Source of the DNA: Escherichia coli
GTDB taxonomy: Bacteria > Pseudomonadota > Gammaproteobacteria > Enterobacterales > Enterobacteriaceae
Direction: 5' to 3' (one strand)
Assembly: GCF_022846255.1 (NCBI RefSeq)
Contig: NZ_AP025682.1
Length of the DNA stretch: 64,000 nt
How positions within the stretch are numbered: position 1 is the stretch's first letter; each line of letters begins with the position of its first letter. This document shows, in pieces, positions 4,396 to 36,181 of this stretch. Position numbers and translations under genes: made by a program. Below the pieces are notes generated by a model. The model was not told the origin of the DNA. It did not search any database and was given only the letters and a program-made list of their open reading frames with translations.

Positions 4396-4749
4396 GTTCT
4401 TCTGGCGTAATAACCCTGAACGCCGGGCTTCGGTTAGTAGGGGTTTTTTTATGCCCGCAATTTATAAACTCTCTACTCCACTATTATTATTTTCAGCAGT
4501 TTAAAGGCTTGAACGGTAAGAACAAGCTAAACTCGACCACCATTTTGCTGTTCATAGCCACTTGCTGGAAGTTAGCCGGCCTCACTCATACTCACCGTTC
4601 AAAGCGTGTCCCCGTTTTACCCCTGTACATTTGTTAACGCCAGCAGAGTTTTACATGCGTTAACGGATATGGAAAGCGGCTCGGAAGGAAAAGCAAAAGG
4701 CGAGGAAGTTACAAAAAAGAATACGCGTCGTCTCGCAAAAAAATAACGC

Positions 4750-4761
4750 CACCCGCAGGTG
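4750..4761. repeat. IS4 target-site duplication (left copy), cacccgcaggtg
   Basis: 12-bp direct repeat identical to 6188-6199, immediately flanking the IS4 terminal inverted repeats. Confidence 0.85.
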
Positions 4762-6187
4762 TAATGCCGATCAGTTAAGGATCAGTTGACCGATCCAGTG
4801 GCTGTGTAAGAATCCGGAAACGCTCACTTGTTTCCGGATTTTTTTATGCACATTGGACAGGCTCTTGATCTGGTATCCCGTTACGATTCTCTGCGTAACC
4901 CACTGACTTCTCTGGGGGATTACCTCGACCCCGAACTCATCTCTCGTTGCCTTGCCGAATCAGGTACTGTAACGCTACGCAAGCGCCGTCTTCCCCTCGA
5001 AATGATGGTCTGGTGTATTGTTGGCATGGCGCTTGAGCGTAAAGAACCTCTTCACCAGATTGTGAATCGCCTGGACATCATGCTGCCGGGCAATCGCCCC
5101 TTCGTTGCCCCCAGTGCCGTTATTCAGGCCCGCCAGCGCCTGGGAAGTGAGGCTGTCCGCCGCGTGTTCACGAAAACAGCGCAGCTCTGGCATAACGCCA
5201 CGCCGCATCCGCACTGGTGCGGCCTGACCCTGCTGGCCATCGATGGTGTGTTCTGGCGCACACCGGATACACCAGAGAACGATGCAGCCTTCCCCCGCCA
5301 GACACATGCCGGGAACCCGGCGCTCTACCCGCAGGTCAAAATGGTCTGCCAGATGGAACTGACCAGCCATCTGCTGACGGCTGCAGCCTTCGGCACGATG
5401 AAGAACAGCGAAAATGAGCTTGCTGAGCAACTTATAGAACAAACCGGCGATAACACTCTGACGTTAATGGATAAAGGTTATTACTCACTGGGACTGTTAA
5501 ATGCCTGGAGCCTGGCGGGAGAACACCGCCACTGGATGATACCTCTCAGAAAGGGAGCGCAATATGAAGAGATCAGAAAACTGGGTAAAGGCGATCATCT
5601 GGTGAAGCTGAAAACCAGCCCGCAGGCACGAAAAAAGTGGCCGGGACTGGGAAATGAAGTGACAGCCCGCCTGCTGACCGTGACGCGCAAAGGAAAAGTC
5701 TGCCATCTGCTGACGTCGATGACGGACGCCATGCGCTTCCCCGGAGGAGAAATGGCGGATCTGTACAGTCATCGCTGGGAAATCGAACTGGGATACAGGG
5801 AGATAAAACAGACGATGCAACTGAGCAGGCTGACGCTGAGAAGTAAAAAACCGGAGCTTGTGGAGCAAGAGCTGTGGGGTGTCTTACTGGCTTATAATCT
5901 GGTGAGATATCAGATGATTAAAATGGCGGAACATCTGAAAGGTTACTGGCCGAATCAACTGAGTTTCTCAGAATCATGTGGAATGGTGATGAGAATGCTG
6001 ATGACATTGCAGGGCGCTTCACCGGGACGTATACCGGAGCTGATGCGCGATCTTGCAAGTATGGGACAACTTGTGAAATTACCGACAAGAAGGGAAAGGG
6101 CCTTCCCGAGAGTGGTAAAGGAGAGGCCCTGGAAATACCCCACAGCCCCGAAAAAGAGCCAGTCAGTTGCTTAACTGACTGGCATTA
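4762..6187 (+). mobile_element. IS4 insertion sequence, complete (1426 bp) with 18-bp imperfect terminal inverted repeats
   Basis: Left end taatgccgatcagttaag, right end cttaactgactggcatta (reverse complement taatgccagtcagttaag); length 1426 bp equals canonical IS4; encloses the IS4 transposase ORF; flanked by 12-bp direct repeats. Confidence 0.92.
4846..6174 (+). CDS. insG: IS4 transposase (InsG), DDE family
   Basis: Translation from ATG at 4846 ([28 protein letters not shown]...) matches IS4 transposase; ORF track start at 4828 is a TTG extension. Confidence 0.92.
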
Positions 6188-14578: not shown

Positions 14579-14655
14579 CCCCAGAAACATCAACGGCTCC
14601 TGAATCAGGAGCCGTCTTATTACTGCATAGCACTTTTTACTGCATAGCACTTTGG

Positions 14656-21196: not shown

Positions 21197-21219
21197 AAGA
21201 TGCATTTAAAATGCATCTT
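21197..21219. promoter_or_regulatory. NsrR operator upstream of ytfE
   Basis: Inverted repeat aagatgcatttaaaatgcatctt 27 bp upstream of ytfE start; matches the known NsrR binding motif form (AAGATGCATTT-N-AAATGCATCTT). Confidence 0.8.
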
Positions 21220-21908: not shown

Positions 21909-21952
21909 TCTAAAAGCTGGATGGCATTGCGCCATCCAGCATGATAATGCGG

Positions 21953-32135: not shown

Positions 32136-33413
32136 ATGAATAAAATAAAGAATTATCGATGGCATATGATTGCCCTCGTATGCTTTATCACTGTAATCAA
32201 TTATCTGGACAGAACGGCGTTAGGTATTGCGGCTCCAACGATTATGGAGACAACCGGAATAACCAAAGAACAATATTCATGGATTGTCAGTGCATTCCAG
32301 TTGGCCTATACATTGGGGCAACCGATAATGGGCTTCTTTATTGATACCGTGGGTCTGAAGTTAAGTTTTGCGATATGTGCCGCAATCTGGGGCCTGGCGA
32401 CAATGGGGCATGCCTTGACAGGAACATGGTCAGGTCTGGCATTTATGCGCGCCCTGATGGGTTTCAGCGAAGCATCGGCAATTCCTGCGGGTGTAAAAAC
32501 CGCATCAACATGGTTCCCGGCAAAAGAGCGTGGCGTGGCGACAGGTGTATTCAATATGGGTACCTCACTCGGCGCGATGCTTGCTCCACCGTTGATTGCC
32601 TGGTGCATTATGTTTCATAGCTGGCAATTTGCGTTTATTGTCTCAGGTAGCCTTGCTTTACTCGCGGCTTTATTTTGGTTCTTTTGTTATAAAGATCCAA
32701 AAGATGCTAAACGCCTTTCTGATGAAGAGCGCCACTATATTGAGTCTGGGCAAGAACAGCATCTTAAAACAGATAAGAAAGAAAAAACGTCAATCAAGCA
32801 TATCCTCAGCCAACGTAATTTCTGGGGGATTGGCATCGCGCGTTTTCTCGCTGACCCGGCATGGGGAACCATTAACTTCTGGGTACCGATTTTCTTCGTC
32901 GAAACGCTGCATTTTAGCCTGAAAGAAATTGCCATGTTCGTCTGGCTGCCTTTCCTGCTGGGCGATCTCGGCTGTTTAGCCAGTGGTTTTGTCGCGAAGT
33001 TCTTCCACGATCGCGGCGTGAGTTTAATTAACTCACGAAGAATTACCTTCACTATTGCAGCCGTCATTATGATGACGATTGGTCTGGTGAGTATTGTCGA
33101 AAATCCCTACATCGCCGTATTACTGATTAGCATTGGCGCATTCTCGCATCAATGTCTTTCTACTGTTGCAGCAACTCTGGGCGGTGACCTATTCAAAAAA
33201 GACGAAGTAGCTACCGCTGTGGGTATGGCAGGAGCCTGTGCATGGAGCGGTCAGTTGATTTTCAACCTGTTTATCGGGGCATTCGTTCACATTATTGGCT
33301 TCGCGCCGTTCTTTATTGCCCTGGCTTTCTTTGACATTATTGGCGCCATTGCGCTGTGGATGCTTATCAAAGTTAAAGACGAAGAACCACAAGTACAGTT
33401 AGCGACAAGCTAA
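32136..33413 (+). CDS. MFS transporter, anion:cation symporter (ACS) family (hexuronate/aldonate-type)
   Basis: 425-aa 12-TM ORF with MFS signature (YLDRTALGIAAP; GxLxDRxG-like loop), resembles ExuT/DgoT-type organic anion permeases. Confidence 0.85.
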   Translation: MNKIKNYRWHMIALVCFITVINYLDRTALGIAAPTIMETTGITKEQYSWIVSAFQLAYTLGQPIMGFFIDTVGLKLSFAICAAIWGLATMGHALTGTWSGLAFMRALMGFSEASAIPAGVKTASTWFPAKERGVATGVFNMGTSLGAMLAPPLIAWCIMFHSWQFAFIVSGSLALLAALFWFFCYKDPKDAKRLSDEERHYIESGQEQHLKTDKKEKTSIKHILSQRNFWGIGIARFLADPAWGTINFWVPIFFVETLHFSLKEIAMFVWLPFLLGDLGCLASGFVAKFFHDRGVSLINSRRITFTIAAVIMMTIGLVSIVENPYIAVLLISIGAFSHQCLSTVAATLGGDLFKKDEVATAVGMAGACAWSGQLIFNLFIGAFVHIIGFAPFFIALAFFDIIGAIALWMLIKVKDEEPQVQLATS

Positions 33414-33422
33414 TTATTTTAC

Positions 33423-33464
33423 ATAGAAACGCTATAATTTAGCTTTGTAGCGTTTCTATTTTTC
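33423..33464 (+). terminator. Rho-independent terminator after MFS transporter gene (possibly bidirectional)
   Basis: Perfect 11-bp stem atagaaacgct ... agcgtttctat followed by tttttct. Confidence 0.6.
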
Positions 33465-33555
33465 TCATAAATTAAACGTCTCTTCCAAAACGTTCAGTAT
33501 CTACTGGCATTGCTTCGCAAATTTATGATTTAGCGAATATATCTAAATAACTATT

Positions 33556-34824
33556 CTAAATTGCCCCCCTGAACGCCTCTGCCATTAACTCTTGCTCACG
33601 ACCAGGTAATCGAAGACGCTCGGCAATGATTCGCCACTGACTGACAATCCCTCTAAAATTAGCAATAATGTCATCTGCTTCTGTCAAACCAAGTCGAAAA
33701 TAATCCACAACTTCTCGAGCTAATTCCAAATCAAGTGCATTATCATTTTCTGTAATATTGAGTTTTAGACCGTCAGACCTGGCAACAGGATTCAAATCAT
33801 ATGCCTCAGAAAGCCGCCAACCTTTTCCCGGTATCAAGATATATCCATGATTACGTAAATGGTCATCGGTATTAGAAACAAGAATATTAAAAACAATCCT
33901 GGACCAGAGTTCCTTAAGGTCAGTATTAGTCTGCGCTCCATGTCTGATAAGAACATCTGCTAATTCCAGATAACTCACACCTGTAGAGGCATCTTCACCA
34001 TCCTGATGCCTGGTTAGTGTCATAGCCGAAGCAAAATGCAGACGCCTTCCCGCATTAGTGCGGTCAAAACGACGAACCATAAAACAATGGTAATTGCTGG
34101 CAAATTTATGCGCCTGAGCAGGTGCAACATTCAGTCCACAGCCAACAGCAAGTGCATTAACGACCATTTCCCATCCACCAACATCATACTCATCTTTTAC
34201 ACTGGGAAATTTAGCGATGTAGAGATACCCAGCTTCATCAACAACACTGGCTTTCGGACGTGTCCCCCCTAATGATCCCCCCGGAGCGATTAGCATTCTT
34301 AACCATTTTTGCCCCATTAGCTCTTTATTATCAGGATCTTCTTCAATTGCCCGGCTAGCCCTTTCCAGACTCGCTATTTCGGTAAATGGTGGGGCTGCAA
34401 CATCAATGCGATTATCAAGAAACTCTCCAGCGTCTTCACGTTTGTATCGAAGAGCCCCAACCCGATAAAGATCATGAACACCTAGTAGATAATCAGACTC
34501 ATAAAGGTGGGAGTCTTTATCACATAACCCGTCTCGAATATCCCTCTCAAAACGACGCTTCATTAGCATACGCCCCCAACGATCCGGGCAGGAATCACTA
34601 AATGCACCAAATTTATCCTTTGGAGGAATTGGGTACTGTGCTCCCTCATACAACATTATTTCAGGATCTAACTGAATGAAATTAAGTGAAGGATCTGCAA
34701 GCGCCTTTTTATCGTACTCAAACTCAAATATCTCACGCGTCCGAGTGCGGCGACTGTGTAAATAACCAATCCGCTCCGGACCATCCAGGCCTTCCCAATC
34801 CGCATACACTCCGATTAATGCCAT
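33556..34824 (-). CDS. HipA-family serine/threonine kinase (type II toxin-antitoxin toxin candidate)
   Basis: 422-aa ORF; HipA N-terminal motif (FSDSCPDRWGRMLMKRR resembles HipA FDNLLPDSPIVRDRIVKRY), glycine-rich loop (IAPGGSLGGTRPKASVV), catalytic motif (LVSNTDDHLRNHGYIL); AAGGAAA RBS; starts 2 nt after upstream HTH gene stop. Confidence 0.85.
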   Translation of the reverse strand: MALIGVYADWEGLDGPERIGYLHSRRTRTREIFEFEYDKKALADPSLNFIQLDPEIMLYEGAQYPIPPKDKFGAFSDSCPDRWGRMLMKRRFERDIRDGLCDKDSHLYESDYLLGVHDLYRVGALRYKREDAGEFLDNRIDVAAPPFTEIASLERASRAIEEDPDNKELMGQKWLRMLIAPGGSLGGTRPKASVVDEAGYLYIAKFPSVKDEYDVGGWEMVVNALAVGCGLNVAPAQAHKFASNYHCFMVRRFDRTNAGRRLHFASAMTLTRHQDGEDASTGVSYLELADVLIRHGAQTNTDLKELWSRIVFNILVSNTDDHLRNHGYILIPGKGWRLSEAYDLNPVARSDGLKLNITENDNALDLELAREVVDYFRLGLTEADDIIANFRGIVSQWRIIAERLRLPGREQELMAEAFRGAI

Positions 34825-34826
34825 AA

Positions 34827-35318
34827 TTAATTTCCTTTTAACGGTTTTTTTATCGGTTTTAATAGTGCTGCAAGAGAGGTTGATGTTTCTCCTGTAATAG
34901 ATGGCGTTGAGCCTTCTGCCAGTGCTGTTAAATCCGTGGTGAGTAAACCTTCTTTCTCATACCTCGTTTGAAAAGGGTCTGTCTGAATACCTTCTTCATT
35001 TTTACCTGATGAACGAGAAAGCCCTCTTTTTTTAATCAAACGGGAATCCTGGAGCTGACGCCCTAAGTCGTCTTCAGCTGCAAGCTTATTTAAATCCGTT
35101 TCCAGGCCCAAAACCTGCATCACAGACAAATATGCCCCTATCGTGACCCCTGCACTTCCTGACTCCAGAGAGCGCAATGTTATTGGCGACATCCCAGCAC
35201 GTTCAGCAACTTGCTTTGCGGTAAGCCTGCGTCGTAAACGAGCAAGTTTCAGCCGCTCACCAAATTCACTAAGCATCTGATTCGTATAAGGGAGTAACGG
35301 TGCTGTTTTTTTACCCAT
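34827..35318 (-). CDS. XRE-family HTH protein, HipB-like antitoxin candidate with ~90-aa Ser/Thr-rich C-terminal extension
   Basis: 163-aa ORF; HTH_XRE region ([32 protein letters not shown]); immediately upstream of and co-oriented with the HipA-like gene; no clear SD at the first ATG, alternative start at Met15 (35276) possible. Confidence 0.75.
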
Positions 35319-35338
35319 AGTGATAATATTTTATCTTT

Positions 35339-35359
35339 TTATGGCTATGATAGCCATAA
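35339..35359. promoter_or_regulatory. Candidate operator: perfect 10-1-10 palindrome ttatggctat-g-atagccataa upstream of HipB-like gene
   Basis: Perfect inverted repeat 21-41 bp upstream of the HTH gene start codon in an AT-rich promoter region. Confidence 0.55.
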
Positions 35360-35664
35360 TATTAGCATTTATTGGATTGAACGCACCTGCAAAGCGTTCA
35401 AGATTACGAAAGTGATGATATTTTATCCTTTTATATATAAAAACAATAAAATAACAGCGCATTCATATATAACATATTGTTTTTATTATCATACAAGGGA
35501 GACGATCGCTGTATTGATGCTTTTGTCGTGTTTTACGCGTAAAAAACATGACACGAACTACCAGCGGCGAGGCTGGGGGCCAGGTATGGGTACTGCGAAC
35601 TTTTTATAAAAGGAATAACAAGAGATTTATGGAGGGAACGTCTGTTTCTGCGGTTTTTATCACT

Positions 35665-35697
35665 TAAAAGCAAAACGCCGACCACTGGTCGGCGTTT
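35665..35697 (-). terminator. Rho-independent terminator of rpsF-priB-rpsR-rplI operon
   Basis: Stem aacgccgacca/tggtcggcgtt followed on the minus strand by ttttgctttt, 23 bp downstream of rplI stop. Confidence 0.75.
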
Positions 35698-35719
35698 TTA
35701 CGTCTCGTTGAATAACGAA

Positions 35720-36181
<462 letters not shown>

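Follow-up and report, generated by a model that had tools for sequence, protein, structure and literature searches.

A putative control region of four operator-like dyads in two 49-bp units upstream of a HipBA-like operon beside rplI in Escherichia coli

In Escherichia coli K-12, HipB recognizes four TATCC-N8-GGATA operators separated by gaps of 10, 21 and 10 bp (PMC4150777); these operators overlap the promoter, and autorepression is exerted by HipB or by HipB-HipA complexes (PMC8262856). HipB of Shewanella oneidensis uses four GTGTA-N6-TACAC operators at 34-bp spacing, the last one inside hipB (PMC4150777), and in Acidovorax citrulli (Aave_4519/4520) HipB binds its own promoter in electrophoretic mobility shift assays and is co-transcribed with hipA (PMC11990009). 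We analysed the control region of a related module in a 64,000-nt stretch of E. coli chromosome (contig NZ_AP025682.1, hereafter the window), which is of the LF82/NRG857c type (B2; 99.8% identity over 33400-35760). The initial annotation of this window had drawn attention to a perfect palindrome flanked by two AT-rich repeats ahead of a helix-turn-helix (HTH) gene, and had proposed them as an operator set on the grounds that HipB-type antitoxins autoregulate through palindromic operators, for which K-12 and Shewanella indeed provide precedent (PMC4150777, PMC8262856). Its placement of the region in front of an HTH plus HipA-family kinase operon is supported here. We consider it probable (about 0.75) that positions 35320-35460 form the self-regulatory control region of a HipBA-like toxin-antitoxin operon, with four dyads in two units, and that the palindrome is not the operator of the family. 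The operon consists of the genes for a long XRE/HTH protein and a divergent HipA_C kinase, and lies on a strain-variable island beside rplI. No publication was found on the control of this second HipA-family kinase module of E. coli.

The conserved cis-element is a 49-bp unit, GTGCTAWTATT-N27-AATAWTAGCAC, recognized by comparing the sequence ahead of the HTH start codon between 80 orthologous loci of species-representative genomes and 13 loci of closer relatives; these loci come from Enterobacterales, Pseudomonas, Burkholderia, Achromobacter and others (Gamma- and Betaproteobacteria). In nearly all of them GTGCTAWTATT stands at -50 (or -49/-54) and its reverse complement at -12 (or -11/-16), and the same cores with N27 at -50/-49/-54 from the start codon, as in the window, were present in 68 of the 80 fetched orthologous loci. 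The core-to-core spacer is 27 bp in 110 of 119 pairs. A second unit of the same internal geometry lies 71-155 bp upstream of the proximal copy; by a tolerant definition, 42 control regions have two units, 28 have one and 11 have none (n = 81). The element is tightly linked to its gene, with 115 matches no more than 300 nt upstream of HTH genes and only 2 in the other 375 kb of locus sequence, and the 64-kb window has matches at 35320 and 35412 only. The features of the region are as follows.

35320..35368, minus strand: proximal 49-bp composite element, ATGCTAATATT-N27-AATATTATCAC in gene orientation, ending 2 nt before the ATG
35320..35337, minus strand: putative site O4, an 18-bp dyad, plus-strand sequence GTGATAATATTTTATCTT with GATA-N6-TATC; copy 1 of the annotated repeat, abutting the start codon
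35351..35368, minus strand: putative site O3, an 18-bp dyad, ATGCTAATATTATGGCTA in gene orientation = TGCTA-N6-TGGCT, holding the most conserved profile positions
35412..35460, minus strand: distal 49-bp composite element, GCGCTGTTATT-N27-AATATCATCAC, weaker (3+2 core mismatches), its arms also found independently in a repeat search
35412..35429, minus strand: putative 18-bp site O2, plus-strand sequence GTGATGATATTTTATCCT; copy 2 of the annotated direct repeat
35443..35460, minus strand: putative 18-bp site O1, GCGCTGTTATTTTATTGT in gene orientation, degenerate in Escherichia
35339..35359, no strand: perfect 10-1-10 palindrome at element positions 10-30, covering the O3 inner half-site and the O3-O4 spacer

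In a position-specific profile of the unit, positions 2-11, 13-16, 34 and 39-47 are strongly conserved, and positions 18-32 are not, save for the flanking T- and A-runs. Each half of the unit has an internal dyad centred at position 9.5, where 3.3-3.5 of 6 pairs match against about 1.5 at other centres; the consensus of the 18-bp half-unit is GTGCWA-N6-TRGCAC, and the inner dyad is perfect (AAGTGC-N-GCACTT) in one Pseudomonas subgroup (L055/L058). Judged from the alignment, the architecture is one of four sites of about 18 bp, with the size and symmetry typical of HTH dimers, in two inverted pairs. The site centres within one unit are 31 bp apart, approximately three helical turns, and both sites of a unit therefore lie on the same face of the DNA; the distal-proximal distances of 71-155 bp share no common helical phase.

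That the 49-bp inverted repeats act instead as RNA, folding into a long hairpin of the 5'-untranslated region in which the left core pairs with the right core beside the AUG and controls translation, is scarcely credible. The arms are complementary and the right one ends 2 nt before the AUG, the minimum-free-energy fold of the Escherichia albertii sequence uses the core-core pairing, and one pair, 12-38, shows a symmetric double change (C-G in 39 elements, T-A in 11). What is conserved across the Gamma- and Betaproteobacteria, however, is base identity and not just pairing: pair 8-42 never varies, and 59 of the 60 proximal elements preserve pairs 9-41, 10-40 and 11-39 (core GTGCTAATATT), while fixed non-pairing is tolerated at 14-36 and 15-35 (G/A in 40-41 of 60) and 29 of 60 have a mismatch at 7-43. 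The internal dyad of each half and a distal copy that adjoins no start codon also speak against an RNA element.

The annotated direct repeats correspond to O4 and O2, the ATG-proximal halves of the two units. The repetition is real and its spacing, given as about 90 bp, measures 92 bp from start to start, but the repeat is longer than the 15 nt first described: it comprises 35319-35342 and 35411-35434, two 24-nt copies identical at 22 positions (92%), and copy 2 of the 15-nt motif is 35413-35427, not 35413-35428. The 22-nt pattern GTGATRATATTTTATCYTTTTA has only these two sites in 64 kb, with 0 expected from shuffles. Other genera have GCCA/GCTA in place of the GATA-type half-sites. Between E. 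coli and E. albertii, identity is 100% in O4, 94% in O3, 74% in the segment between the units and 72-83% in O1 and O2 (72% in O1), and positions 35320-35368 are free of single-nucleotide polymorphisms (SNPs) across the window and five other E. coli lineages. In four of these five lineages O2 has T at 35428, which brings it closer to O4, and O1 reads GTGCTG in four of the five. The window lineage thus departs from four of the five others at 35428 (O2, C vs T) and 35459 (O1, G vs A), and at both positions its base is the one farther from the operator consensus. Two loci have units outside the usual places: Paraburkholderia phenazinium carries a third 49-bp unit about 670 bp upstream of the HTH gene (L010, 1832-1880), and a Pseudomonas locus has an extra one about 1.9 kb downstream of the HTH start (L076, 4388-4436), perhaps the sign of a second module.

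The palindrome, TTATGGCTAT-G-ATAGCCATAA, occupies exactly the annotated coordinates, 35339-35359, with 10 of 10 arm pairs complementary. It occurs once in the window, even when up to 3 mismatches are allowed (0 expected from shuffles). Among 4000 simulations of a 401-nt region with its dinucleotide content, 22 produced a perfect inverted repeat whose arms were 10 nt or longer and whose loop did not exceed 5 nt. Neither the palindrome nor the direct repeat is due to chance. The annotation placed the palindrome immediately upstream of the HTH gene, which is true only loosely, as one repeat copy (O4) lies between it and the ATG at 35318. It further took the palindrome for a central operator flanked by the repeats, and this part could not be upheld: the conserved elements are the two 49-bp units of two 18-bp dyads each, and of the palindrome only the left arm is conserved, as the inner half-site of O3, the right arm falling into the non-conserved O3-O4 spacer. 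What survives of the proposed operator set, after comparison of more than 80 loci, is the repeated AT-rich motif, which belongs to a strongly conserved, operator-like architecture; the palindrome itself drops out as a likely operator.

All six E. coli lineages compared (the window and five others) have the palindrome in perfect form, and in E. albertii it becomes an 8-5-8 repeat, with intact outer arms and two central changes. In the Salmonella, Klebsiella-type island, Enterobacter, Atlantibacter and Serratia loci it is missing, with 1-5 of 10 positions paired; these palindrome-less Enterobacterales loci have O3/O4 identical or nearly so, and their recognition helices differ from that of the window by no more than two residues. 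It is therefore very unlikely that the palindrome is the main operator for an HTH dimer with the AT-rich direct repeats as auxiliary sites, even though it is perfect and statistically non-random, keeps its outer 8-bp arms in E. albertii where both changes are central, and overlaps a candidate -35 element. Its half-sites, moreover, point outward with respect to the family dyad, at a spacing of N5 rather than N6, so that a dimer that binds in the O1-O4 manner could not use the palindrome. An exact reverse complement of the inner half-site was found in the spacer of 5 of 60 distinct proximal units against 1.6 expected (22 of 1000 shuffles reach 5), four of the five being related Pseudomonas loci; a third conserved spacer site (TGGC-N7-GCCA, the palindrome core) was accordingly rejected as a family feature. 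On the evidence of these loci the palindrome is derived and Escherichia-specific, and not a family operator. It most probably originated in a local template-switch (quasi-palindrome) event that copied the O3 inner half-site in inverted orientation, and its role is possibly secondary at most, for example on the candidate -35.

A less likely alternative is that the palindrome is a functional gain specific to Escherichia, serving as a site for a host DNA-binding protein, as a structure that tunes the -35 or spacer, or, in transcripts that continue from the rpsF-priB-rpsR-rplI operon or start at a distal promoter, as an RNA hairpin. The predicted hairpin is stable (-9.9 kcal/mol, z = -3.3), E. albertii retains the stem and alters only the loop, the rplI terminator, on the same strand, is 350 bp upstream of the module, and the palindrome is without SNPs across the sampled E. 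coli lineages. Against this, compensatory changes are absent; of 21 positions only 2 differ between E. coli and E. albertii, so that retention may reflect shared ancestry. The palindrome has no T-run and is thus not an intrinsic terminator; the region has no Rfam match at the gathering score, a permissive E-value yielding only sub-threshold matches at the rplI terminator; and the Fur and IHF patterns do not fit. The Fur box (GATAATGATAATCATTATC, or 7-1-7 TGATAAT-N-ATTATCA) was tried at O4 and rejected at 7/19 and 5/14 mismatches, and the IHF core, K-12 hipB operator and Shewanella operator patterns did not match the region either. The left arm, finally, would be untranscribed if transcription began at either of the predicted starts described below.

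The operator-like sites can now be set against the described systems. As in K-12 hipBA, the HTH gene comes first with the HipA-family kinase gene behind it, and four dyads lie upstream in two close pairs that overlap the promoter (here a predicted one). The half-site sequence is unrelated: the annotation had noticed the departure from TATCC-N8-GGATA, and the best match in 35300-35480 indeed has 3 mismatches in the 10 specified bases. The dyad is 5/6-N6-5/6 here and 5-N8-5 in K-12. Paired sites are separated by 13 bp and their centres by 31 bp, the two pairs lie at a varying distance from each other (71-155 bp), and the last site directly adjoins the ATG. The HTH protein, which does not qualify as a HipB orthologue, has 163 aa against 88 aa for HipB. 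The region probably works as the hipBA operator region does, although it is not a member of the canonical operator family. With S. oneidensis hipAB it shares the 5-N6-5 dyad format and the number of sites, and O4 abutting the start codon recalls the Shewanella site that enters the HipB reading frame; unlike the evenly spaced Shewanella operators (34 bp), the sites here form two tight inverted pairs, and the sequence has at best 4 of 10 mismatches to the Shewanella pattern. The A. citrulli system has a similarly long HipB (507-bp gene), but its HipA has 440 aa with a recognizable Couple_hipA domain, and its operator is undefined.

Promoters were ranked with a sigma-70 weight matrix, and the ranking is indicative only. 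The candidates are listed below.

35351..35356, minus strand: candidate -35 TGGCTA of model a, part of the top-scoring combination TGGCTA-N17-TAAAAT
35328..35333, minus strand: candidate -10 TAAAAT of model a, predicted start about 35321, leader about 3 nt
35359..35367, minus strand: candidate extended -10 TGCTAATAT of model b, predicted start about 35352, leader about 33 nt

Model a has the top score in the window and in the Serratia, Erwinia and Atlantibacter loci (Enterobacterales). It would give a nearly leaderless mRNA, which would fit both the missing Shine-Dalgarno-like sequence ahead of the HTH ATG and the fixed distance between O4 and the ATG. The extended -10 of model b has the highest mean -10 score over all loci (7.6 vs 4.3 for the alternative), and its TGnTAWTAT occupies strongly conserved left-core positions throughout the family, a conservation it owes to being the core of O3. 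Both candidate promoters fall within the proximal unit (O3/O4), and occupancy of O3/O4 would block RNA polymerase under either model. A sigma-54 reading of TGGC-N7-GCC was rejected: sigma-54 promoters have a GG-to-GC spacing of 10 nt, and here it is 8 nt.

Taken together, the most likely mode of control appears to be autorepression in the manner of HipB, acting on a promoter that lies within O3/O4. Dimers of the HTH protein would occupy each of O1-O4, and the two dimers of a unit would be held in a rigid higher-order complex, either as an HTH tetramer or bridged by the kinase as in K-12 HipBA; such a rigid multi-dimer complex would explain the invariant N27 spacing. Structural work on the K-12 HipBA-promoter reportedly revealed HipA-bridged complexes on operator pairs. 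Occupancy of O3/O4, which contain the only plausible -35/-10 or extended -10 elements, would shut off the promoter, and the distal unit may contribute cooperativity or a further level of control. The HTH protein is the presumed ligand of the sites. Two loci (L080/L081) with the recognition helix ISRTSLYKVE in place of MSPMTLRSLE carry another inverted repeat, TCTATTATGGACA-N14-TGTCCATAATAGA, in the corresponding position, and smaller variants of the recognition helix accompany A7T or T5A changes of the core.

Several points weigh against this autoregulatory reading. The loci were sampled by the peptide pattern MTLRSLE[AS]G, which skews the sample towards one recognition helix and leaves a single outlying subgroup for the co-variation test. 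In Pseudomonas the O4-type sites have inner half-sites of poor symmetry, and one dimer per 18-bp half is therefore not proven. A plain sigma-70 consensus scan found no promoter on the gene strand, and the two models from the weight-matrix ranking disagree. The literature searched contained no binding, footprint or transcription-start data for the HTH family. The palindrome, too perfect for chance and with its 8-bp outer arms retained in E. albertii, possibly has a function of its own.

A more elaborate scheme, which we regard as quite unlikely, is that a rigid repressor (an HTH tetramer or kinase-bridged dimers) clamps the promoter of a leaderless or nearly leaderless antitoxin mRNA, with the Escherichia palindrome acting as a fifth, everted half-site exactly one helical turn from O3 that retunes the switch or recruits a host factor. 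The rigid-repressor, leaderless arrangement is suggested by the invariant N27 and by an operator that ends 2 nt before the ATG. If the scheme were true, the fifth half-site would represent a lineage-specific rewiring of a persistence-type kinase module in B2 E. coli (extraintestinal pathogenic and adherent-invasive strains). The comparison of loci yields a precise, testable operator map of four sites with one consensus and one invariant spacing, together with two explicit predictions of the transcription start, and it marks the perfect palindrome, the most conspicuous feature, as the wrong first target for mutation. The region is otherwise a toxin-antitoxin autoregulatory region of the expected type.

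The genes of the module follow rplI (35720-36169) on the minus strand in the order rplI, terminator, 401-bp intergenic region, HTH gene, 2 nt and kinase gene, with the following coordinates.

35672..35698, minus strand: rplI intrinsic terminator, the only terminator-like site found
34827..35318, minus strand: gene for the HTH (XRE-family) protein, 163 aa, identified by Pfam HTH_31 (6.6e-11), alignment and a match to PDB 9U9G
33556..34824, minus strand: gene for the HipA-family kinase, 422 aa, Pfam HipA_C (5.4e-45), starting 2 nt past the HTH stop codon

The kinase is annotated in RefSeq as a 'type II toxin-antitoxin system HipA family toxin'. Its translation contains DDHLRNHG, which we take to be the catalytic loop, and YDLNP, presumably with the Mg-binding Asp, both aligned to HipT. 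The HTH gene lies directly upstream of the HipA_C kinase gene in the same orientation, and the catalytic motifs are present in the kinase, two of the properties of a HipBA-like module in the broad sense of Gerdes et al. (2021); the same pairing recurs in the Salmonella, Enterobacter, Klebsiella-type and E. albertii loci. From sequence comparison, the two proteins are evidently not orthologues of K-12 HipB and HipA. The HTH protein scores 16.5 bits against NCBIfam PRK09726 (the HipB equivalog, cut-off 79) and 30.3 bits against TIGR03070 (couple_hipB, cut-off 71.65). The search of PDB sequences with the kinase reached only HipT chains (E ~1e-8 over ~100 residues), and canonical HipA chains were not matched at E <= 1e-3. 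Accessions that would place the kinase in a clade of Gerdes et al. were not found in the supplements of PMC8262856, PADLOC returned nothing for the kinase and only generic HTH matches for the regulator, and toxicity or neutralisation experiments on the HTH-kinase family were not found in the literature searched.

The family of the HTH protein is large, with 2362 database proteins at E <= 1e-5, and its members share a layout: a conserved N-terminus M[AG]KKTAPLLP, from which the start codon is set at 35318, then the HTH domain, a variable linker of low complexity and, conserved at the C-terminus, LAALLKPxKK. PDB 9U9G, a four-chain entry deposited as 'XRE family transcriptional regulator, HipB' (153 aa), aligns end to end with HTH residues 1-97 (E = 1.4e-30), including the MxKKTAPLxP N-terminus and the HTH domain, and is of the same family; it comes from another organism and is so far uninformative on the operator, as neither a paper nor a DNA complex turned up in the literature search. 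An AlphaFold2 model of the HTH protein built from a 15-sequence alignment had a mean pLDDT (predicted local distance difference test) of 54.5, too poor for a fold search, and was used for the secondary-structure layout only. Residues ~95-145 form a variable, probably disordered linker, and residues 146-163 carry the conserved T[ST]AxLAALLKPxKK. The C-terminus of K-12 HipB docks into HipA, and this motif recalls it; the Ser/Thr residues beside it could be kinase substrates.

The module is carried by 1041-1046 of 5426 complete E. coli genomes (about one-fifth), LF82-like strains included. In genomes without it, homology ends at ~35666, just beyond the rplI terminator, and the whole intergenic control region is therefore part of the variable island. 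A comparative study has described gain of hipA in the sublineage containing phylogroup B2 (PMC6896753). The toxin gene appears to be decaying in part of the species: at the rplI site of one other E. coli lineage (L084, 2995-4262) the kinase gene is split into open reading frames (ORFs) of 168 and 253 aa, and in another (L085, 2981-4392) the kinase region has no called ORF, the HTH gene and the proximal operator unit being intact in both. Elsewhere the module travels on different mobile islands; it adjoins a phage-type integrase gene in one Enterobacterales locus (L094, 1-123) and in another (L082, 1-2161 / 4455-5486) it is bordered by an autotransporter gene on one side and, on the other, by AcaB/DUF3158 genes of a type characteristic of integrative elements. 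On the Enterobacter cloacae chromosome (L093, 1-182), the orthologous module is directly preceded by the gene for a class-I tRNA synthetase of 333 aa (Pfam tRNA-synt_1b, TrpS/TyrS type), a size that fits TrpS. HipT-type kinases target TrpS, and this adjacency could hint at the target of the kinase or merely reflect the insertion site.

A 43-aa ORF (35331-35462, minus strand) that spans O1 to O4 was rejected as probably spurious, its ATG not being in frame in E. albertii. Four more perfect inverted repeats with arms of 10-11 nt occur in the window, at 14593-14615, 21197-21219 (AAGATGCATTT-A-AAATGCATCTT), 6158-6183 and 21916-21940; about 0.27 perfect inverted repeats with such arms are expected per window-sized sequence, and these four may be terminators or operator sites.

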